This document shows, in pieces, positions 1-24,287 of a stretch of 26,713 nucleotides of DNA. Made by a program: the position numbers and the translations under genes. How positions within the stretch are numbered: position 1 is the first letter of the stretch; every line of letters begins with the position of its first letter. The stretch comes from a virus (taxonomy: Duplodnaviria; Caudoviricetes), in the IMG/VR virus record IMGVR_UViG_3300037851_000756, positions 1 to 26,713 of that record. The stretch is one strand, 5' to 3'. A model generated the notes under the pieces. It had not been told where the DNA came from and ran no database searches. It saw nothing but the letters and a program-made list of their open reading frames with translations.

Positions 1-1770
1 GCCGCAGGCCAGCGCACCGCGAACGGGGCCGCGACCCTTGCCGCCGTCTCCGGGCTCACGGCCGCCGGGCAGCGCACGACGAACGGCACAGCGACCCTCG
101 CGGCGTCCTCGGGCCTCACGTCGTCCGCTCAGAACGAGGCACGCGGCGCGGCGACCCTCGCGGCCACCTCCGGGCTGACGGCCACCGGCTCGCGCGCGGT
201 CGACGGGGCGGCGACCCTGCCGGCCGTCTCGTCCCTGACCGCGGCCGGCGAGGCGAGCGTCACGGGCGCAGCCACGCTCGCCGGCACGACCACGCTGGTG
301 GCCACGGGCCAGCGCACCGCCAACGGCGCGGCGACCCTCCCGGCGACCTCGGGGCTCACCGCCGCCGGGCGCAACGAGGCGCACGCGGCGGCGACCCTGC
401 CCGCCACGTCGACGCTCACCGCGAGCGGCCAGCGGACGGTCAACGGCACGGTGACGCTCGGCGCGGCCTCGACGCTGACGGCCGCCGGCAACGCGAACCC
501 GACGGGCTCCGCGACTCTTGCGGCCGCGACGACCCTCTACTGCGAGGGCGACGTTCAGGGGCAGCTGACCGGCTCCGCGACCCTGCCCGCCGTCTCGGGC
601 CTCACCGCCAGCGCGCAGGTGGAGGTGCGCGCGGCGAGCACGCTCTCGTCCAGCACCACCCTCACGGCCGCGGGCCAGAACACGGCCTTCGGCGCGTGCG
701 CGCTTCCCGCCTCCTCCTCCCTCGCTGCTGCTGGCGTTCGGGTGGTTTCCTCGGGCGCGACGCTGGCGGCGGCGAGTACCCTGTCGGCCGACGCCTCCGC
801 GATCCAGACCGGGGCGGCGACCCTCGCGAGCACGAGCGCGCTCACCGCCACGGGCACGGCGAACCCGGTCGGCGCAGCCGCGCTCGCGTCGACCTCAACC
901 CTCACGGCGAGCGGGCAGCGGACGGCCGTCGCCTCGGCGGCGCTGCCCGCGACCTCGGGTCTCGCCGTCGCCGGCACGACGTACCCGACCGGCACCGCCG
1001 TCCTCGCCGCCGTCTCGGGGATGGATGCGGTCGCGGAGGGCGGCGCGACCGGCACGGTGGTGCTCGGGGCAACGAGCGCGCTCGCGGCGAGCGGGCAGCA
1101 CGATGCGCTCGGCTCCGCGACCCTGCCGGCGGGCTCGACGCTCGTCACGGCCGGCACCGCTCTGCCGACGGGGACCGCGGTCCTCGGCGTGGCGAGCGGC
1201 CTCACCGCAATCGGGCAGCGCACCGCCTTCGGCGCGGCCTCGATGGCGGCCGTCTCGGACGTGGTCGCCGTCGCGGAAGGCGAGCAGGTCGGAGCGGCCA
1301 CGCTCGGCGCGTCGAGCGTTCTCTCCGCGAGCGCAACGAAGGACGTCTTCGGCTCGGTCTCGCTTGCCTCCTCCTCGGGCCTAGCGGCGAGCGGGCGAGC
1401 CGAGACGTTTGGTGGCTGTGCCGCAGGGGCGGCCTCCAGCCTGACGGCGGCGGGCCATATCGACATCATCGCGTCGGCCACGCTCGCGAGCGCGTCGGAC
1501 CTGACTGGAAGCTCGGAGGGCGAGCTAACAGCCTCCGCGCTGCTCGGGTCCAGCAGCGGGCTCTCGGCGACGGGAGCGCGCGACGCCGTCGGCGCAGCGA
1601 CGCTCGGTGTGGCATCTGGCTTCGCGGCCTCCGCGACGAACGAGGCGCTCGGCGCAGCGGCGCTCGACGCCGCGTCCTCGCTCGCGGCCACGATCACCGG
1701 GATCTACGACGCCGGTGCCGACATCCCGGCCATATCCGGCCTCGTGGCAGCGGGCGTGGTCGGGACCGAG
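1..1770 (+). repeat. Degenerate ~60-nt tandem coding repeat
   Basis: Successive 60-nt lines align (gcgaccct..g.c..c..ctc....ctcac.) at 1-540; later units drift with occasional 1-2 codon insertions. Confidence 0.9.
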
Positions 1771-1896
1771 GAGCTTGCCCAAGAACTCGTCGCCGTCACG
1801 GCGCACTTCGCCACCGACCGCGGGATCGTTTCGCACCACGCGCCCGCCGTCTCGGTGGTCGCGCACTTCCACCTCGACGTGGACTGGAGGATCTGA
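1..1896 (+). CDS. Ala/Thr/Ser/Gly-rich 20-aa tandem repeat protein, probable virion fibre/beta-solenoid (5' end outside window)
   Basis: Frame 1 is open from base 1 (AAGQRTANGAATLAAVSGLT...) to TGA 1894-1896; repeat consensus GxATLxAxSxLTAxG recurs about 29 times; stop overlaps next ATG (TGATG). Confidence 0.8.
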   Translation, partial: AAGQRTANGAATLAAVSGLTAAGQRTTNGTATLAASSGLTSSAQNEARGAATLAATSGLTATGSRAVDGAATLPAVSSLTAAGEASVTGAATLAGTTTLVATGQRTANGAATLPATSGLTAAGRNEAHAAATLPATSTLTASGQRTVNGTVTLGAASTLTAAGNANPTGSATLAAATTLYCEGDVQGQLTGSATLPAVSGLTASAQVEVRAASTLSSSTTLTAAGQNTAFGACALPASSSLAAAGVRVVSSGATLAAASTLSADASAIQTGAATLASTSALTATGTANPVGAAALASTSTLTASGQRTAVASAALPATSGLAVAGTTYPTGTAVLAAVSGMDAVAEGGATGTVVLGATSALAASGQHDALGSATLPAGSTLVTAGTALPTGTAVLGVASGLTAIGQRTAFGAASMAAVSDVVAVAEGEQVGAATLGASSVLSASATKDVFGSVSLASSSGLAASGRAETFGGCAAGAASSLTAAGHIDIIASATLASASDLTGSSEGELTASALLGSSSGLSATGARDAVGAATLGVASGFAASATNEALGAAALDAASSLAATITGIYDAGADIPAISGLVAAGVVGTEELAQELVAVTAHFATDRGIVSHHAPAVSVVAHFHLDVDWRI

Positions 1897-2216
1897 TGCT
1901 CGGCGGCGCGATGGACTACTCCTTCGTGGCGGGGGACACGAACACCGTCCTCACCGTCACCTGTCGCCATGCGGACACCGACGCCGTGATGGATCTCTCC
2001 GGGGCCACCGTGACGCTGCGCTGGCGCATCGACGGCGGGACGCTCGTCACGAAGACGATGACGATCACCGACGCGCCCAACGGCGTCTGCACCTACACCT
2101 TCGACGCGGCCGACCTCGTCGCTGGCATCATGCAGGCCGAGGTGCGCGTGACGCTCGCCGGGAAGTTCACGACGAGCGTCGAGCCCTTCTTCTTCACGGT
2201 GAGGCCGACGACATGA
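1896..2216 (+). CDS. BppU N-terminal-like Ig-fold virion protein
   Basis: GGAGG at 1886-1890, ATG 1896; motif GDT...DLSGATV...G.CTY...D..AG..QAEV resembles BppU_N/DUF2479 domains. Confidence 0.65.
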   Translation: MLGGAMDYSFVAGDTNTVLTVTCRHADTDAVMDLSGATVTLRWRIDGGTLVTKTMTITDAPNGVCTYTFDAADLVAGIMQAEVRVTLAGKFTTSVEPFFFTVRPTT

Positions 2217-2470
2217 ACACGATTCCGCATTGGATCGCGCCGGGCAAGGGCGGCCCGCCCGACGCTCGAACGATCGAGCATGCTCTCGCGACGCTGCGCG
2301 CCGCGCTGCCGCCCTCGCTGCTCGTCCTGCTCGCGCTTCACCTCGATGCGATGAAGGCCGAGCAGGCGTTCGGTCACGTCGCCGTCGAATTCCACATGCA
2401 CCGCGGGGACGTGCGCTCCGCTGCGTTCCAGCGCCGCACGACGTGGCAGGCGTCGGAGTCGAAGCCTTGA
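2213..2470 (+). CDS. Small hypothetical protein, YezD/DUF2292-like C-terminus
   Basis: ATGA overlap with previous gene; 85 aa; FGHVAVEFHMHRGDVRSAAFQRRTT resembles the FGxVxIxxHxGxV pattern of DUF2292 proteins. Confidence 0.6.
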   Translation: MNTIPHWIAPGKGGPPDARTIEHALATLRAALPPSLLVLLALHLDAMKAEQAFGHVAVEFHMHRGDVRSAAFQRRTTWQASESKP

Positions 2471-2496
2471 CACCTCCGTAGGAGCGCCCACAGAAT
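2467..2496 (+). promoter_or_regulatory. Candidate sigma70-type late promoter
   Basis: Perfect TTGACA (2467-2472), 18-nt spacer, CAGAAT (2491-2496) at the only sizeable intergenic gap upstream of the head genes. Confidence 0.55.
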
Positions 2497-2520
2497 CCCG
2501 TTCGGCCAAGAAGGTCCGAC

Positions 2521-2559
2521 AGACCCCGGCCACCGCAAGGTGGGCCGGGGTTTTCTTTT
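2521..2559 (+). terminator. Intrinsic terminator/attenuator before prohead protease
   Basis: ACCCCGGCCACC-GCAA-GGTGGGCCGGGGT stem-loop (one bulge) followed by TTTTCTTTT; SD GGAGG follows at 2560-2564. Confidence 0.8.
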
Positions 2560-2570
2560 GGAGGCAGCCG

Positions 2571-3623
2571 ATGTCGCTGGAGTTCCTGAGCGCCGCGATC
2601 ACGACGGGAGCCGAGGGAACCTTCCGTGCGGTCGCGAGCGCGCGCGACTCCATTGCGAACGGCGAGCGCGGGCCGACGCGCTTCGCCGAGAACGCCTTCC
2701 GCGAGTCGCTGGAGCGCAGCGCGCGCTACCCGCTGCTCTGGCAGCACAAGGACGACGCGCCCGTCGGCGTCGCGCACCTCTCGATGGACAGCGCCGAGGG
2801 GCTCGTCCTCGACGGGCAGTTGGCCCTCGAAGTCCAGCGCGGGCGCGAGGCGCGCGAGTTGCTGAAGATGGGCGCGCTCGACGGCGTGTCGATCGGCTTC
2901 ACCGCCGAGAAGGCGCGCATGGAGACGCACGGCGGGAAGTCGGTGCGCGTCGTCGAGAAGGCGAAGCTGATGGAGGTCTCGCTCGTCACCTTCCCGGCCG
3001 ACCCGAACGCGCGCGTGCTGACGGTGCACCGCGAGGGCGACCCCGACGAGCAGCTCGCCGACTGGATGGCTGAGGTCGAGGCGACGCTGCTCAACGGCGA
3101 CATCGAGGCGCACGCCGGCCGCGTCTTCTCCGAGGGCAACCTGACGAAGCTGCGCGCGGCGCTCGGCACGCTCGTCGACCTCGTCGAGAAGGTCGATCCG
3201 GGGCACATCGCCGCGCTCGGCCGGCGCGCTGCGAAGACGCTGAAGAAGTCGATCATCCTCATGCCCGGGAAGGCGAAGAAGGCGACGGCCTCCGCGGCGG
3301 TGCGCGCCGACCGGATGCGCCGCGCCGAGATGCACGCGGCCGGCATCGACGTGCCCCTGCTGCGGCTGGAGCCTTATCCGGCCTACGTCGCCGAGGGCGT
3401 GAACCCGGACGACGCCCTGCTCAACGCCATCAGCGGTGCGTGCTCGTACCCGAAGGACGCGCGGCGGATGCTGACGGTCGAGTCGGTCAAGCAGTACCTC
3501 GTTGCCATCGGCGAAGCCGAGGAGGCCGACGACGACGACGAGATGCGCGCGCCCGAGGACGGGCGCGAGCCGGCGAACGCGCCCGAGGACGGGAGCGCCA
3601 CGAAGAACGAAGGCGCGGCCTGA
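2571..3623 (+). CDS. HK97-family prohead protease (peptidase S78) with C-terminal extension
   Basis: LLWQH, LDGVSIGF and LMEVSLVTFPA motifs; AGRVFSxxN helical extension; directly upstream of capsid gene. Confidence 0.92.
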   Translation: MSLEFLSAAITTGAEGTFRAVASARDSIANGERGPTRFAENAFRESLERSARYPLLWQHKDDAPVGVAHLSMDSAEGLVLDGQLALEVQRGREARELLKMGALDGVSIGFTAEKARMETHGGKSVRVVEKAKLMEVSLVTFPADPNARVLTVHREGDPDEQLADWMAEVEATLLNGDIEAHAGRVFSEGNLTKLRAALGTLVDLVEKVDPGHIAALGRRAAKTLKKSIILMPGKAKKATASAAVRADRMRRAEMHAAGIDVPLLRLEPYPAYVAEGVNPDDALLNAISGACSYPKDARRMLTVESVKQYLVAIGEAEEADDDDEMRAPEDGREPANAPEDGSATKNEGAA

Positions 3624-3651
3624 AGGCCGCTTGAACGAGAGGAGAAGCGAG

Positions 3652-4983
3652 ATGTCCCTTCAGGTCCAGCAGAAGGAAGCGCGTGAGCGACTCGGCAAGG
3701 CGCAGACCGACGCGCGCGAGATCGGCGTCAAGCTGACCGACGCCGAACTCAAGGGCGAGGCCAACGCGGCCGAACTCAAGGAGCAGTTCGACAAGGCGAT
3801 GAAGGACGTGGAGGTCTTCGCCGGCACGCTCCAGCGCATCGACCAGATGATCGCCGCCGAAGCGCGCGCGAACGAGGTCATCAACGGCCTGCCCAACGAC
3901 CCGAGCGAGGCGTATCGCGAGGGCTCGCGGGCCGAGGGGGTCGTGTCGAAGGAGACGGCCGAGCGCTTCGCGGAGGGGATCCGCGAGTGCCAGAACGCCT
4001 ACTTCCGCCACGGCGCGTCGCACCCCGCTTACATCACGGCGCGGGAGAAGCTCTCGGCGCAGACGACTGCGCTCAAGCCCGAGGAGCGGCAGGCACTCGT
4101 CGGCTCCATCGGCACGCTCGGCGGCGCGCTCGTCACCGAGGACTTCAAGGCCGAGGTCATCAAGAACATGGCGGGCATCAGCGTCGCGCTGGCATCGGGC
4201 GTGCGCGTCGTGCCCTGCTCGTCCAACACGCTCGTCTTCCCGTCGATCGTCGGCGGGACCGACCCGTGGTCGACGGGCTACTCGGGGACGTGGCGGCCGG
4301 CCGGCGCGGTCGGCACCGACGGCACCGCCCCCACGGTCCAGAACCAGCCGACGTTCGGGCAGGAGCGCATCCCCGTCCACGAGTGGCAGCCGGACGCGGT
4401 CGTCGTCGACCCGTCGCTGCTCGAGGACGCCGCGGTGCCGCTGGAGTCGATCCTGCAGGAGGCGATCGCCGAGACGCAGGCGCTCGACTGGGACTACGCC
4501 TTCCTGCGCGGCGACGGCATCGGCAAGCCGCGCGGCATCTTCGACTACATCGGCTCGGGCGTGTCGTCCGTGAAGACGGGCGACGCCTCGCTGATGACCT
4601 ACAACGGGCTCATCGACCTCATGATGACCCTGCCCGCGCAGTACCGCGAGGGCGCGGTCTTCTACATGAAGTCGCTGACCTTCGGCGCGATCCTGAAGCT
4701 GAAGGACTCCGCGAACAACCCGATCATGTACTCGGGCCAGATCCCCGGCACGCTGTTCGGGAAGAAGGTCTGGATGACCGAGCACATGCCGTCGGTCGCC
4801 GGCGCGGCGTACCCGGTCCTCTTCGGCAACCCGCGCTACTACGTCGTGGCCTCTCGCCGCGACCTGCGCGTGCAGCGGCTCATCGAGCGCTTCGCGCCCA
4901 ACGTCGGGTTCCTGCCGACCGCGCGCGTCGGCGGCGCGCTCGTCCGCACCGTCGCGTTCCTCGCGCAGAAGGTCGAGGCGTAA
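3652..4983 (+). CDS. HK97-fold major capsid protein
   Basis: GAGGAG SD then ATG 3652; N-terminal coiled-coil delta-like domain; GGALV, FLRGDGIGKPRGI, LKLKDS, VLFGN, RVGG motifs. Confidence 0.93.
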   Translation: MSLQVQQKEARERLGKAQTDAREIGVKLTDAELKGEANAAELKEQFDKAMKDVEVFAGTLQRIDQMIAAEARANEVINGLPNDPSEAYREGSRAEGVVSKETAERFAEGIRECQNAYFRHGASHPAYITAREKLSAQTTALKPEERQALVGSIGTLGGALVTEDFKAEVIKNMAGISVALASGVRVVPCSSNTLVFPSIVGGTDPWSTGYSGTWRPAGAVGTDGTAPTVQNQPTFGQERIPVHEWQPDAVVVDPSLLEDAAVPLESILQEAIAETQALDWDYAFLRGDGIGKPRGIFDYIGSGVSSVKTGDASLMTYNGLIDLMMTLPAQYREGAVFYMKSLTFGAILKLKDSANNPIMYSGQIPGTLFGKKVWMTEHMPSVAGAAYPVLFGNPRYYVVASRRDLRVQRLIERFAPNVGFLPTARVGGALVRTVAFLAQKVEA

Positions 4984-4999
4984 CAGCGACCGCCTGATA

Positions 5000-5115
5000 G
5001 GCCAGCAGCGAGGAGTGGTCCGGCCCTCGCTGCTGGCCCGTAGCTCGAGCCCGGACCCTGCAACTCGTCGGGACTGCCGGCAAGGCCGCCCGACGACTCG
5101 AAAGGTCCGAAGCTC
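5000..5115 (+). promoter_or_regulatory. Structured intergenic RNA element between capsid and decoration genes
   Basis: Perfect 14-bp stem 5000-5013/5025-5038; nested stems 5047-5050/5112-5115, 5052-5057/5104-5109 and 5065-5072/5089-5096 ending at the next ATG. Confidence 0.65.
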
Positions 5116-5580
5116 ATGGCACAGCCCGCCACCGGCGGCTCCAGCGTCAACCGCGATCTCGGAGCCAAGCTCAAGGCCGTCCAGTCCATCGCCGCCATCG
5201 TCGGCAACAACACGACCGAGGGGACCGGCGTCGCGGTCGACCTCAAGGGGTATGAGGGCGCGCTCGTCCTCTTCAACATCGGCACCTCGCTCGACACGCT
5301 CTCGGGCTCGGTCTACGTCACGCTGTCGGTGCAGGACAGCGACAACGGCTCGACCGGCTGGGCCGACCTCGCCACGACGAAGTACCGCATCGACGAGGGC
5401 GCGCTCGTCATCGACGACCCCGCCGAGGACAACATCCAGACGGCGATCACCGTGCTCGCGGGCGCGGGCGTGAAGCGCTACATCCGCCCGCTGATCACCT
5501 TCACGGGCACCCACACGAACGGCTTCCCCATCGGGGCGACCGTCGTCAAGGGCTTCCCGCGCGTCGAGTCGGCTGCCTAG
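5116..5580 (+). CDS. Probable capsid decoration/cement protein (Bbp16-like jelly roll)
   Basis: Follows capsid gene; G..VDLKGY, VQDSDNG..WADL and KRYIR motifs typical of this beta-sandwich family. Confidence 0.65.
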   Translation: MAQPATGGSSVNRDLGAKLKAVQSIAAIVGNNTTEGTGVAVDLKGYEGALVLFNIGTSLDTLSGSVYVTLSVQDSDNGSTGWADLATTKYRIDEGALVIDDPAEDNIQTAITVLAGAGVKRYIRPLITFTGTHTNGFPIGATVVKGFPRVESAA

Positions 5581-5592
5581 TAGCGCTTCATG

Positions 5593-5628
5593 ACGGGGGT
5601 CGGCGGCTCAGCTGCCGCCGACCCTCGT
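5593..5628 (+). terminator. 15-bp GC-rich hairpin after head genes (no U-tract)
   Basis: ACGGGGGTCGGCGGC-TCAGCT-GCCGCCGACCCTCGT after tandem TAG TAG. Confidence 0.5.
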
Positions 5629-5644
5629 GCTCGGGAGAGGGATC

Positions 5645-6235
5645 ATGGCGACCTACGACGCGGTCACGCTGATCGAAGTGAAGACTGCGCTGTCGATCGA
5701 CGGCACCGCCGAGGACGTGAGCCTCGCCCGCCTGATCTCCGCGACGACGCTGGAGGTCGAGCGGTTGCTCGGCACGCAGTTCGTCATTCGCGAGGTCGTC
5801 GAGCAGCACGAGGGCGGCGAGCGCCGCATCTACCCGCAGGTGCTCCCGATCGTCGCCGTCTCCTCCGTCGTCGATCCCGCCGGCAACGCCGTACCGGCGG
5901 GCCAGTACGTCGTGCGGCAGAAGCGGTGGCTGGAGCACTGGGGCCACTTCCCGCTCGCCTTCAACTCGGCGGGCCAGCAGACCGACTACACCGTGACCTA
6001 CACCGCCGGGCACTTTTCCTCGACGAGCACCGTCGCGCCCGACGTGAAGGCAGAGATCGTCCGCGCCGTCGGAACGTTGCGCGAGGCCCCTGCCGCGGGC
6101 GTCACGTCGGTCAGCGTCGGCGACCTGTCCATCTCCTACGCTGGCCGATACGCGAATCAGGGCAGCGCCACGCTCTCTCCGGCGATCGAGGCGGCGGCCA
6201 ACTCACTCGATCGCTACCGAGGGGTCGTCCTGTGA
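5645..6235 (+). CDS. Head-tail connector/adaptor (HK97 gp6/SPP1 gp15-like)
   Basis: VTLIEVK..L...ED..L..LI.A N-terminus, VTYTAG, SVSVGDLSISY and LDRYR motifs; GGAGAGGG SD. Confidence 0.85.
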   Translation: MATYDAVTLIEVKTALSIDGTAEDVSLARLISATTLEVERLLGTQFVIREVVEQHEGGERRIYPQVLPIVAVSSVVDPAGNAVPAGQYVVRQKRWLEHWGHFPLAFNSAGQQTDYTVTYTAGHFSSTSTVAPDVKAEIVRAVGTLREAPAAGVTSVSVGDLSISYAGRYANQGSATLSPAIEAAANSLDRYRGVVL

Positions 6236-6600
6236 TCCACATCCTTCAGCGCGCGAAGGTCCATGCGCTCGCTGCCGTCGCCGTGCCGGGCGCGGGCCTC
6301 GCCGTCGCGGCGAACGAGCCGTCGCTCCAGCCCGCAACGCCGCAGGACGTGCTGGTCGTCCTCGGCGGCTTCATCGTCGTCGTCGCTGGGGCGCTGGCGC
6401 TCGCCTTCGTCCGCTGGCTGAACAAGGTCGAGCACAACGTCCCGCGCGACCCGGACCGCCTCTCCGATGCCGTGCGCCACGTCCATCGCGAGGTCGAGGG
6501 GCTGCGTAGCGACGTGCGTGGCATCGACCGCCGCGTCGCCCGGATCGAGGGCAGCCTCGTCGGACTCACTGTGGTCGAAGAGAAGGAGCATCGCGGATGA
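6232..6600 (+). CDS. Membrane protein: N-terminal hydrophobic segment, TM helix, coiled coil (holin/XhlA-like?)
   Basis: GTGA overlap; VLVVLGGFIVVVAGALALAFV TM segment; heptad tail VEGLRSDVRGIDRRVARIEG. Confidence 0.6.
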   Translation: MIHILQRAKVHALAAVAVPGAGLAVAANEPSLQPATPQDVLVVLGGFIVVVAGALALAFVRWLNKVEHNVPRDPDRLSDAVRHVHREVEGLRSDVRGIDRRVARIEGSLVGLTVVEEKEHRG

Positions 6601-7010
6601 CGACGACCGAGATTGTGACTTTCGAACAGCACGCGCTCCCGCTCGTCAACACCTTGCTCATCCTGCTCGTCGCGCTCGTCTTCTATCACCGCTCGCGGCA
6701 GTGGACCGGCATCTCGCAGAACGCGCGGATCGAGAAGCAGGACGCGCGACTGTCGATCGCAGAGGCGAACATCCGCAGCCTCCGCGCCGACATGGAGTAC
6801 TTCACGAGCACCTATCAGGAGACGCTCGACGAGGTGCTGAAGGAGGTCCGCTCGATCACGCGCAACGGCGCGAAGGAGCATGCGATCGAGACGCGGCTGA
6901 CCGCGCTGCAGGATCAGGTCATGGCGATCGAACAGGACGTGACGGGGCTCCCGTGCTTCGTGGGATCGAAGCTCCTGTGCCAGCAGGACAAGGTGGAGGA
7001 GAAGGGCTGA
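6597..7010 (+). CDS. Single-TM coiled-coil membrane protein
   Basis: ATGA overlap, AAGGAG SD; LPLVNTLLILLVALVFY TM followed by long heptad region and C-terminal CxxxxxxC. Confidence 0.65.
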   Translation: MTTTEIVTFEQHALPLVNTLLILLVALVFYHRSRQWTGISQNARIEKQDARLSIAEANIRSLRADMEYFTSTYQETLDEVLKEVRSITRNGAKEHAIETRLTALQDQVMAIEQDVTGLPCFVGSKLLCQQDKVEEKG

Positions 7011-7327
7011 TGCCGCTGCCGGGCGCGATCCTCGCGCAGATGCGGGACACGGTGACGGTGACGCTCGCCGGGGCGAAGGACGCCTACGGCGAGACGGCCG
7101 CCGGCTCGTCCTTTCCGTCTGTCGCGCGCGTCACGTACTCGCGGTCGAATCGAGAGACGACGCGAGGCGACGAGAGCACCACCGGGCTGACGGTCTACAT
7201 GCCCGACATCGACGGCTTCAACGGAGACGCGGTGCTGCTGCTCCCTGACGGGCGCTCGTACCCGGTGAAGTCGTACACGCGGCCGGCATGGCCCGATGGC
7301 ACGCGCCACCTGCGAGTGAGCCTCTGA
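7010..7327 (+). CDS. Head closure protein (SPP1 gp16/HK97 gp7-like)
   Basis: TVTV....DAYG, LPDGRSYPV motifs; 105 aa; position in neck module; TGATG coupling. Confidence 0.7.
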   Translation: MPLPGAILAQMRDTVTVTLAGAKDAYGETAAGSSFPSVARVTYSRSNRETTRGDESTTGLTVYMPDIDGFNGDAVLLLPDGRSYPVKSYTRPAWPDGTRHLRVSL

Positions 7328-7800
7328 TGACGCTCGGAATCGGCAAAATCGTCAGCGGTGGCGGGACGACGAAGCCCGCTTCGTGGGGAGTCGACTTCCC
7401 GGGCCGCGGCGGGGACACCGGCAAGGAGGCCTTCTTTCTTCGGATGGAAGGACTCAACGCGTGGCTGCGCTCGATGGAGGAGGACTGGCGCGAGGCGAAG
7501 GAAGCGGCCGAGGAGGCGCTGCGCCTCTCGCTGGAGCGCCGCGTCATTCGGCCGTCGCTGCGCCTGTGCCCGATCGACACGGGGGCGCTCCGGGCGAGCG
7601 CATGGGCCGACGCCTCGTACCGCGGCGGCTACCTGCAGGGGGCCTGCGGCTACGACACCGACTACGCGCTGTGGGTGCATGAGATCCCCGCGGCGCACAA
7701 GTCGCCGACGCAGTGGAAGTTCCTTGAGGAGCCGTTCTCGCTGAACGCGCACCTCGTCGCCGAGGACGTGCTGGCGGCCATCCGCGCGGAGTTCGACTGA
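7327..7800 (+). CDS. HK97 gp10-like neck protein
   Basis: CPIDTGALRAS, YDTDYALWVHE and KFLEEP motifs. Confidence 0.85.
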   Translation: MTLGIGKIVSGGGTTKPASWGVDFPGRGGDTGKEAFFLRMEGLNAWLRSMEEDWREAKEAAEEALRLSLERRVIRPSLRLCPIDTGALRASAWADASYRGGYLQGACGYDTDYALWVHEIPAAHKSPTQWKFLEEPFSLNAHLVAEDVLAAIRAEFD

Positions 7801-8228
7801 TGCTGCTCGACGAGGTCGCGTCCTACCTCGAAGCCGAGGGCATCGGCGTCGTGAAGACGACGGCGAACGACCCGGCGTGGCCGATCCACAAGGGCGGCCT
7901 GTACCCGGGATCGCAGGCGCACCCGAACGACGCGATCGGTTTGCTGGAGGGACCCGGTGACTTTCCGATCAACGAAATGGGCGCGACGGTGGGCTCCGTG
8001 GTTGCGGAAACGCCTTCGCTCGTCGTCCACGTCCGCAGCGCCTCCTACGCCACGGCTCGCTCGAAAGCAGACGCGGCATGGGGCCGGCTCCACAAGTACG
8101 CGGGGACGCTCGGAGGAGTGCGCTACCTGCTGATCGAAGCGCGGCAGTCTCCGTTTCCGATCGGCCGCGACGACGCCGGGCGCTGGATCATCGGCTGCAA
8201 CTACGGGGTCACGAAGGAGCGCGCATGA
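7800..8228 (+). CDS. Tail terminator (minor capsid 3-like family)
   Basis: EVASYL..GIG, QSPFPIGRDDAGR...CNY motifs; precedes tail tube genes. Confidence 0.75.
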   Translation: MLLDEVASYLEAEGIGVVKTTANDPAWPIHKGGLYPGSQAHPNDAIGLLEGPGDFPINEMGATVGSVVAETPSLVVHVRSASYATARSKADAAWGRLHKYAGTLGGVRYLLIEARQSPFPIGRDDAGRWIIGCNYGVTKERA

Positions 8229-21981: not shown

Positions 21982-22713
21982 TCATCGCTCGCGGAGGCGC
22001 ACGCCGGGCACGTCGATGCCCGACGCGAGGGCGCGGTCGATGCGCTTCGCGACGACGGCGAGGTATTCGCGCGGCACGGCTGCGAGGTCGACGATCTCCC
22101 ACATGCGCGGCGTGGTCCGGCGGTGCGGCCGAAGGATCATCTTCCGCTTCGCCCACTCGACTAGCCGGCACGCCTGAGAGCAGAGCCGCGCGGCCGGACT
22201 CGCCGCCATGAACGCTACTCCGCAGGATTCGCACTTCTTCTCGATGGTCCGGTCTTGGCGAATCGGTGGGCGCGTGCGCGTCTTCCGCGGAGCAGCGACC
22301 AGCCGAGGATGCTCGTCGTCCCACGCCTTCCATGCGCACTCTTTCGAGCAGTGGCGCGCGGCTGGCTGCGACGACACAAACTCGCCCCCGCACCAGCCGC
22401 AGGCGCGCGCGGGCCGGTTGATGGGCTCGACGGCCACGAGGGTTTTGGACCCGTCCTTCAGCAGGGCGTCGAGGCAGTAGGCTCGGATCTCCGCAATCGA
22501 CCCAAACACCATCGATCCCTTGATCCGGTTGCAGAGGTGGCAGGAATGGATCGTCTTCCGCCCCCCGGCCGCCTTCGGGACGGGATGCTCCCGCTCGCGG
22601 CGAAGCCAAACGGGGCGGCCCCGCCATGTCACCCGGGAGCCAAAGGTGCGGAGGCAGTACGAGCAGGCGTTGGCGCTGTGGGCCTTTTCGGGAGGGGGGG
22701 TCGGCTCATTCAT
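21982..22713 (-). CDS. HNH endonuclease with two Cys4 zinc-finger repeats and Gp157-like C-terminal motif
   Basis: CSYC...EHPVPKAAGG...CHLCNRIKG; CGWCG..F...CSKEC; CESCG..F...CSQAC; WEIVD..VPREYL...VPGV. Confidence 0.75.
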   Translation of the reverse strand: MNEPTPPPEKAHSANACSYCLRTFGSRVTWRGRPVWLRREREHPVPKAAGGRKTIHSCHLCNRIKGSMVFGSIAEIRAYCLDALLKDGSKTLVAVEPINRPARACGWCGGEFVSSQPAARHCSKECAWKAWDDEHPRLVAAPRKTRTRPPIRQDRTIEKKCESCGVAFMAASPAARLCSQACRLVEWAKRKMILRPHRRTTPRMWEIVDLAAVPREYLAVVAKRIDRALASGIDVPGVRLRER

Positions 22714-22961
22714 CGGCGCTCCAATGTAGCGCTTGCCCTAGGCCCCTGCAAGGGCATTTGCGGGCCATCCTGAGCCGCCCCCCCCGGGGGTCGCCCCGGG
22801 CGGCCTTGCCCGCAGGAGGCCTTCCCCCGGCGGGGCTGGGATGATCCGTCGCCAGCCCCCCGGGGAAGCGCCCACAGGGGCGCGTAGCCCCCCACGCGGG
22901 GCTTCTGGCGGGGGGGCCGGGGCAGCGGCCGCGGTCGTACCGGGGGGGGGCGACCCCCCCC

Positions 22962-24287
22962 CTAGGGGGCTGGGGGGGGCGGCGAGGGGGGCATGGCCCC
23001 CCGGCTGGCCCGGATCTCCTCGAAGGTCCGACCGTCACCGGCCAGCGTCGCCTGCTGGCCGGTGAACTTCTGCCAGCGCAGCACCGAGACGTCCACGTAG
23101 TTCGGGGTCAACTCAACGGCGAAACACGCGCGGCTCGTCATCTCGGCAGCGATGATCGTCGTGCCGGCACCGACGAACGGGTCATAGACCGCGGAGCCCG
23201 GTGCCGACTGATGCTCGATCGGCCGCTTCATGCACTCGACCGGCTTCTGCGTCCCGTGGAAGCTGCGGTCGTCTTCTGGCCCCTTCTTGCCGCTCAGCGG
23301 ATGCAGGTTCGGGATCTCCCACACGGTCGTCTGCTTTCGGTCGCCGTGCCAGTCGGCGGTGCGCCCGTGCCTCACCGCATACCAGCAGCACTCATGACGC
23401 CAGTGGTACGCGCCGCGCGAGATTGGGGCAAGCTGCTTCGCCCACACGATCTGCGCGCGGATGTTGAATCCGCTCGCGACGATGCTTTCATGCACGCTTG
23501 CCGCTTGAAGGCCGCCGTGCCAGACGTACATCACATCGCCCGGGAAGAGCGCCCACGCCTCGCGCCAGTCGGAGCGATCGTCGTTCACGACAGCATCCCT
23601 CGCGCGCGCGCGCCCGAGATTTCCGATGCCGGAATGCTCGCGCCACAGCGGGTCGTAGTCCACGCCGTAGGGCGGGTCGGTCACCATCAGCACGGGCTTT
23701 GCTCCGGCAAGGACGCGAGACACCGTCTCCGCGTCTGTCGCGTCCCCGCAAATGAGGCGGTGCTTCCCGAGCAGCCAGACGTCTCCGTGGACGCTCGTAA
23801 CGACCGGCGGCTCCTCGACGACCTCGTCGGCGTCCGCGTCGATCTTCTTCGCGAAGCCCAGCCCGAAGTCGTCGTCGCCGAAGCCCCACTCGCGCAGCGC
23901 GTCCACGTCGAAGTCGTTCGCGAGCAGGTCATAGTCCCACTCGCCCGTGTTCTTGTTCAGCCTGATGGCAAGCTCGATGCCCTCGTCTTCGCTGAGCGGC
24001 CGGGATGGAATTCGCACGTCGACCATCGCGTCCGGCGACAGCAGTTCGCGGGCAATGGCGACCTTGCGCCTCATGTGGCCACCGATGATCGAGCGCCCGT
24101 CGGCGTTGACGACGATCTCCTCGACGTAGCCGAACTTCAGCAGCGACGTGGCGAGGTCGGCCTCCTGCTTCTCGGTCAGCCGGCGAGGATTCTTGTCCCA
24201 CTCGACGAGGTCGCCGATGCGGCGCTTCTCGGTGCGCCAGACGATTGAACCTTCGGCGGCCGCCTCGCCCTTTCTCCAGAACGCCAT
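22962..24287 (-). CDS. ParB-like N-terminal domain fused to N6A/N4C DNA methyltransferase (beta class)
   Basis: KNPR...IIGGHMR (ParB-like); HRLICGD, TDPPY, HGTQKP and DPFVGAGTT in beta-class order. Confidence 0.92.
   Translation of the reverse strand: MAFWRKGEAAAEGSIVWRTEKRRIGDLVEWDKNPRRLTEKQEADLATSLLKFGYVEEIVVNADGRSIIGGHMRRKVAIARELLSPDAMVDVRIPSRPLSEDEGIELAIRLNKNTGEWDYDLLANDFDVDALREWGFGDDDFGLGFAKKIDADADEVVEEPPVVTSVHGDVWLLGKHRLICGDATDAETVSRVLAGAKPVLMVTDPPYGVDYDPLWREHSGIGNLGRARARDAVVNDDRSDWREAWALFPGDVMYVWHGGLQAASVHESIVASGFNIRAQIVWAKQLAPISRGAYHWRHECCWYAVRHGRTADWHGDRKQTTVWEIPNLHPLSGKKGPEDDRSFHGTQKPVECMKRPIEHQSAPGSAVYDPFVGAGTTIIAAEMTSRACFAVELTPNYVDVSVLRWQKFTGQQATLAGDGRTFEEIRASRGAMPPSPPPPAP

Follow-up and report, generated by a model that had tools for sequence, protein, structure and literature searches.

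The window, by which we mean the whole 26,713-nucleotide stretch of DNA that was analyzed, is a 26.7-kb virus contig with a GC content of 69% and a completeness of ~34%. The contig is present in freshwater metagenome runs, and the phage is uncultured. The last but one gene in a co-oriented run on the plus strand is a BppU_N-like gene (1896 to 2216; PF10651, E 5.7e-7), and its TGA overlaps the ATG of a gene for an 85-aa protein (2213 to 2470); judging from this overlap, translation of the two genes seems to be coupled. Behind the 85-aa gene on the same strand come a sigma70-type promoter-like site (2467 to 2496), a small hairpin at the predicted transcription start (2504 to 2516), an intrinsic-terminator-like stem with a U tract (2522 to 2559), and, directly 3' of the U tract, the Shine-Dalgarno (SD) sequence GGAGG (2560 to 2564) and the ATG at 2571 (together 2560 to 2573) of a prohead protease gene. 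The protease gene (2571 to 3623; Peptidase_S78, E 1.6e-21) and the gene for the HK97-type major capsid protein (3652 to 4983) would be the first and second genes gated by this arrangement, and head-tail connector, tail, and tape-measure genes continue after the capsid gene on the same strand to approximately 21856. The 85-aa open reading frame (ORF), its stop codon within TTGACA, the CAGAAT, the hairpin at 2500 to 2520, the terminator, the U tract, and the protease SD all lie where the original prediction had placed them. The large upstream gene at 1 to 1896 encodes an Ala/Thr/Ser repeat protein. On the minus strand, at 21982 to 24287, an HNH-like ORF and one ParB-like plus DNA-methylase-like ORF, both assigned by eye, converge on the tail genes.

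We compared the window with a strain variant recovered from runs X2 and X3, which carry identical differences and were counted once. The variant contig has 24 differences, 22 of which were listed, and one of the others lies at 2159. Among the differences listed, 15 fall in the 85-aa ORF and 14 of these are silent, a bias (p 1e-6) that rules out the possibility that the ORF is a shadow frame. Changes affect 14 of 85 third codon positions versus 1 of 100 intergenic bases (Fisher p 1.5e-4), and the sole intergenic change listed is in the promoter spacer. By these sequence comparisons, the 85-aa gene is real, conserved, and under purifying selection.

Protein searches returned 24 close homologues with 47 to 72% identity, and a wider search among 1.84 billion proteins gave 20 representatives at E values up to 0.001, two of which are probably spurious repeat proteins. 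Our broad alignment, A5 (37 rows), excludes four near-redundant close homologues, the 153-aa protein P0030, and the long repeat proteins P0041 and P0044, which were judged spurious; it contains two invariant glycines, G54 and G65. The C-terminal residues KP occur in 16 of the 24 close homologues versus 1 of 16 distant ones. Because KP is what the bases preceding the -35 box spell, this hints at the sequence level that the overlap of stop codon and -35 box is general among the close homologues, for one of which the DNA is in hand. Scans of viral, metagenome, and genome sequences for homologue DNA yielded just two contigs, G015 and another whose sequence stops within the gene, tblastn of the protein against GenBank phages gave no match, and a scan of 401 genomes of one phylum, run without a positive control, found no homologue. 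The 85-aa protein matches no family in the Pfam, PHROG, and NCBIfam libraries. MecA, its best sequence match in the PDB, was rejected as a relative at an E value of only 0.08.

The protein had been described as YezD/DUF2292-like, a family that we take to be linked to OscA. At the 22-bit cutoff for PF10055, neither the 85-aa protein nor any of 37 family members matches, and the window contig gives no PF10055 match even at a threshold of E 10. For a more sensitive comparison, we took 27 true PF10055 loci from bacterial genomes, excluding a match located at the end of a contig as well as two borderline matches that lay in long frames, and aligned 23 of the proteins (A4). The profiles of A5 and A4 align in register across both glycines (E 0.0035, probability 9.4%), and none of 100 column shuffles, a lenient control, scored as high. 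The narrower alignment A2 is not in register with A4, and 9 of 100 shuffles were equally good. Atlas scores for DUF2292 likeness were 0.76 to 0.85, a range that shuffled proteins also reach. The resemblance therefore stands as a weak one and a fair lead at the level of profiles, and family membership does not. Both groups are small proteins with a helix-G-strand-turn-G-strand pattern in which the two invariant glycines align, and both have a structured leader 3' of the gene; the 85-aa family differs in having an extra N-terminal helix, two more hairpin residues, and another RNA motif.

The original prediction was of a small basic beta-hairpin protein. The composition is only mildly basic (nine K+R versus seven D+E, pI 9.7). 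A single-chain model built from six sequences places a helix rather than a hairpin at residues 34 to 62, with pLDDT below 50 past residue 55. No arginine-rich N terminus is seen in the alignment of the family. A two-copy model scored 0.67 versus 0.01 for the best of three controls; 20 of 30 proteins whose solved structures are pairs attained the mark used for dimer scores, as did 1 of 23 whose solved structures are single chains. Runs of the two-copy model share at least 98% of contacts, with pLDDT of at least 82. The contacts between the chains (57:57, 59:57, and 55:61) suggest a pair of strands at residues 55 to 61 that meets across the dimer axis, and the 85-aa protein is predicted on this model to be a homodimer.

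The promoter-like site combines TTGACA (2467 to 2472), which contains the stop codon of the 85-aa gene, an 18-nt spacer, and CAGAAT (2491 to 2496). In a consensus promoter scan of positions 1 to 8000, this was the sole site (shuffle mean 0.2), and it is the best such site in the window, with one weak site elsewhere. The usual sigma70 spacing places the start of transcription near 2504, and we take ~2504 as the probable start. In the diverged phage represented by contig G015 (locus L001), both boxes and the 18-nt spacing are identical, the stop codon again lies inside the -35 box, and the spacer sequence differs at 8 of 18 positions.

The terminator was described originally as strong, and its predicted fold bears this out (-26.1 kcal/mol, z -4.9, matched by none of 500 shuffles). 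Its stem spans 2522 to 2552 and has a GCAA loop; the U tract has one interrupting C, and a simple terminator scan did not report this terminator. The 21-nt hairpin at 2500 to 2520, previously called boxB-like, is marginal when folded alone (z -2.0, 26 of 500 shuffles equally good). The outer part of its 5' arm is not conserved in the relative and would be missing from the transcript, since the predicted start at ~2504 lies inside the hairpin. We rejected the full hairpin as the functional unit. What remains is a 4-bp hairpin (2504 to 2516) with a 5-nt purine loop, which does not overlap the terminator and is compatible with termination.

A second fold of the same RNA does compete with the terminator. 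In this predicted antiterminator helix (2504 to 2531), 2504-2507 pairs with 2528-2531 and 2513-2516 with 2522-2525 on either side of an A-rich internal loop, so that GGUC pairs with GRCC at the terminator foot and the first bases pair with the middle of the terminator 5' arm. Ten nucleotides of that arm are used, and the two folds are mutually exclusive. Stepwise folding gave the same order in both phages: the 5' hairpin up to 22 nt, then the antiterminator helix, which is the minimum-energy fold of the 28- to 42-nt RNA, then the terminator. The helix is weak (z -2.4, 9 of 500 shuffles as good), and at full length forcing it costs ~17 kcal/mol relative to the terminator in both phages; it therefore needs a helper and must act kinetically. 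Each leader contains AAGGU twice, 26 to 28 nt apart, with the second copy in the terminator apex. The 14 nt of this apex (2530 to 2543) are identical in the relative, whereas the flanks differ, and when the antiterminator helix forms, the apex is still predicted to fold into a small hairpin next to it, possibly as a second site for the dimer. The part of the leader outside the terminator is as constrained as the terminator stem. A comparison of the leader with Rfam gave nothing at gathering score. On these predicted folds, the anatomy of the leader is that of a factor-dependent attenuator.

The diverged phage keeps the whole cassette and the gene order, with 70% identity in the 85-aa protein. 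It has a same-sized gene at the place of the BppU_N-like gene, the promoter boxes, and the SD, and it likewise retains AAGGUC, the terminator, and the distance of 7 nt to a GGCY start. GGUC is kept and its partner changes from GACC to GGCC (U-A to U.G), which preserves pairing, and the lower stem of the antiterminator pairs in a register different from that in the window. Changes in the antiterminator pairs are all one-sided, with no clean two-sided change between the two phages, and the comparison covers a single independent full cassette. The 5' hairpin is conserved as well as the antiterminator helix, so conservation is compatible with either of them as the bound fold. Gene and leader occur together in two phages and one strain variant, so the conserved leader that had been sought beside homologues was found in a single independent copy. 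Upstream, L001 also encodes a repeat protein (1 to 2229) in the same position as that of the window, with a different, Ser/Pro/Ala repeat.

In the related contig G031, small and large terminase-like genes, identified by eye, sit elsewhere, behind ParB-like genes, and for this reason the proposed gate would cover the head and tail genes and not packaging. A search upstream of these terminase-like genes in G031 detected no leader copy. The ParB-like genes there adjoin the terminase-like genes in the late orientation, an arrangement unlike that of the window.

We then asked where the core of the leader recurs. The motif GRCY-NNN-AAGGUCCGA, a pattern derived from the same data, matches the window twice, once at 2504 and once at 5095, and has no match in 100 shuffles. 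The second copy (5095 to 5110) lies between the capsid gene and the ORF that starts at 5116, and it is kept in G015, G030, and G031. Here GGUCCG (5104 to 5109) can pair with an upstream CGGACC (5052 to 5057) around an inner stem (pairing region 5052 to 5110, z -4.2) whose sequence differs between the window and G015. With this pairing, the AA-GGUC/GACC-C junction would form again, its parts permuted, and the likely ribosome-binding site of ORF 5116 would be covered. The motif can equally form a short 5' hairpin (5095 to 5107), and since both folds are possible, the second site supports a recognized element and is silent on the bound fold. It matches nothing in Rfam at gathering score.

Pattern searches in other phages gave many loci and few homologues. 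A promoter-only pattern matched 86 loci, with a gene for a homologue of the 85-aa protein in G015 alone. Adding the hairpin to the promoter gave 39 viral and 45 genome loci, an unspecific set in which the match continues with GRCC in 1 of 32 viral and 1 of 42 genome cases. A terminator-type pattern matched 37 viral loci, 27 of them distinct; a matching 5' arm is present in 9 of the 27 versus 2.6 expected, and G015 is one of the nine. Among the terminator-type loci, many of whose records are fragments, the homologue gene was found only in G015, and none of 31 records exceeded the PF10055 cutoff. The motif-bearing records that match A2 (1 of 31) and A5 (1 of 23) are G015 both times. At L151, L168, L100, L101, L108, L123, and L130, a GRYY-loop-GGUC hairpin or the alternative helix directly precedes a terminator-like stem, and the records of this type that were searched contain no homologue of the 85-aa protein. 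In L151, the unit is flanked on one side by a promoter-like site and on the other by a gene resembling, by eye, a small terminase.

The bacterial DUF2292 loci have an RNA element of their own. A CCRG-loop-CYGG hairpin with a one-base 3' bulge follows the DUF2292 gene in 23 of 27 loci and occurs twice in 14; the pattern was devised after viewing the loci, and shuffles gave a mean of 0.8 and a maximum of 4. It has no match in the window at 2470 to 2670, and one match, unlocated, in the 200 nt behind the G015 homologue of the 85-aa gene. Conversely, the motif of the phage leader was found in 0 of the 27 bacterial loci. Among the bacterial hairpins, which lie in the first 200 nt 3' of the gene (L222 to L251), the upper stem covaries, and in several loci the 3' side appears by eye to be able to pair over an SD. 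Ten of these loci were scanned against Rfam, and nothing reached gathering score for the hairpin. L251 additionally has a c-di-AMP riboswitch 5' of its DUF2292 gene.

Taken as sequence evidence, these data indicate that the conserved gate is real and that the 85-aa protein is a plausible partner. The mechanism that we tentatively prefer, although we put it at slightly under an even chance in its full form, is a protein-dependent attenuator that gates the head-tail genes. We infer that transcription by host RNA polymerase would begin near 2504 and end by default ~56 nt on, at ~2559, and that the 85-aa dimer, a candidate RNA-binding protein, would likely bind the nascent leader and hold the helix at 2504 to 2531, so that the terminator could not form and transcription would read through. 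Because the 85-aa gene ends the upstream run and seems to be coupled to it, head-tail transcription would be switched on only after the upstream late operon had been expressed. The same factor would have another site in the motif copy 3' of the capsid gene. A broader reading, to which we give a limited chance of being right, is that DUF2292-like proteins form a superfamily of tiny dimeric RNA-binding regulators in which every branch has a cognate internal-loop RNA, and that the 85-aa protein represents a distinct phage branch. This protein would open the head-tail operon by antitermination and act again behind the capsid gene, on the permuted helix junction, to set the output of the next gene.

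Known systems differ in how closely they resemble this arrangement. BglG, SacY, and LicT are dimeric antiterminators with CAT and PRD domains that act on RAT hairpins in sugar-uptake operons. They share with the system predicted here a terminator close to the promoter, the 5' arm of which also takes part in a weak internal-loop hairpin (predicted in both phages), and a dimeric protein that would stabilize the hairpin, here as a candidate. In contrast, the 85-aa protein is a single domain, the operon is a phage late operon, and there is no Rfam match. Antitermination of the BglG/RAT type is the most likely mechanism by this analysis, and family membership is excluded by the missing domains, since the protein has no Pfam or NCBIfam match to CAT or PRD. 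The exclusive antiterminator helix in both phages points to RAT-like logic rather than to lambda N or Q. The promoter-leader-terminator gate tied to the small gene survives from the original prediction, with the cassette conserved in a diverged phage and constrained in a strain variant, whereas the analogy to boxB/N or Q proved not to be the best fit.

The lambda pR'-tR' region, like this locus, has a strong sigma70-type promoter after a regulator gene, a short leader, a terminator, and then virion genes. The Q system uses a sigma-dependent pause and a conserved DNA element, located between the -35 and -10 boxes, at which Q loads; in the present locus, conservation is lowest in that spacer and high in the transcribed region. 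Library scans of the 85-aa protein and 34 further ORFs detected no similarity to Q. The earlier statement that the window encodes no Q homologue therefore holds for these 35 ORFs, on a contig that is ~34% complete and of whose minus-strand ORFs a minority were scanned. Lambda N, whose system comprises an arginine-rich-motif protein, boxA, and boxB, likewise has a small purine-rich pentaloop hairpin near the gene of a small protein, but here the protein shows no arginine-rich N-terminal motif and is a predicted folded dimer, the genes are late rather than early, and three of the five loop bases are changed in the relative. In the ANTAR and HutP systems, an oligomer binds repeated short RNA elements that overlap a terminator, which recalls the repeated AAGGU in both leaders; the differences are that no ANTAR or HutP domain is matched and there is no pair of hexaloops.

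Regulation of read-through at the leader, by whatever means, is probable in our view. It is unlikely that the regulator is another phage or host factor, for example one that is Q-like or RinA/ArpU-like, and that the 85-aa protein functions in virion assembly or translation. Such a factor could be encoded in the missing part of the genome, hairpin-terminator units resembling the motif occur in phage records with no detectable homologue, and the link between protein and leader is adjacency in two phages. However, the stop codon lies within the -35 box in both phages, most close homologues have the KP end that goes with that overlap, and the weak DUF2292 relatives travel with RNA hairpins; synteny within a late region could also account for this. 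More doubtful still is an arrangement in the style of N/boxB, in which the protein binds the 5' hairpin at 2504 to 2516 and modifies polymerase for this terminator and later ones. Both leaders have kept the 4-bp hairpin and its AA-ending 5-nt loop, the same hairpin reappears at 5095 to 5107 in four genomes, and the excess of matching 5' arms among terminator-type loci agrees with it. Against this, the promoter-plus-hairpin pattern is unspecific, and the 5' hairpin does not overlap the terminator and blocks antiterminator pairing, so a stabilized 5' hairpin would favor termination unless polymerase were modified. The 19 kb downstream contains few U-tract terminators, and processive antitermination would therefore be little needed.

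A touch less probable again is the absence of any switch: the terminator would end the upstream operon and damp the promoter by a constant leak, or a 56-nt small RNA would be made, with the antiterminator helix a by-product of GC content. Co-oriented genes do reach the terminator, which wins by 17 kcal/mol at equilibrium, the U tract is broken by one C, and GC content is 69%. Such an arrangement, however, would put a constant brake on the genes directly behind, which encode the most abundant virion proteins and for which no other consensus promoter was found, and it fits poorly with a leader whose remainder is as constrained as the stem and with a motif that recurs at a second intergenic site. 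We consider mainly translational control improbable. The dimer would bind AAGGU sites in the leader and at 5095 to 5110 in a CsrA-like manner and set the translation of the protease and ORF 5116. The U tract abuts the SD, the second motif copy lies over a likely ribosome-binding site, and several of the bacterial hairpins look by eye as if they could pair over an SD. Yet at the first site the SD is outside both predicted folds for a transcript ending at the U tract, and a stem followed by a U tract is terminator anatomy.

Control of phage late genes is known for few groups and involves Q, N, RinA/ArpU-type activators, or phage sigma factors. We found no published account of the switch proposed here in titles and the openings of abstracts of papers outside subscription; as far as this coverage goes, a late-gene switch of this type would not have been published before for any phage. 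If the protein-dependent attenuator is correct, an 85-residue protein and a 56-nt leader would constitute a very compact on-switch for virion genes, and this would be the first biochemical role for DUF2292-like proteins. The 85-aa proteins add to this picture a divergent family whose RNA motif is also different. Directly 3' of the capsid stop codon, at 4999 to 5039, the window also contains a long GC-rich hairpin without a U tract, and G015 has a hairpin of different sequence at the corresponding place; the hairpin at 4999 to 5039 is possibly an element that stabilizes the RNA or directs its processing.
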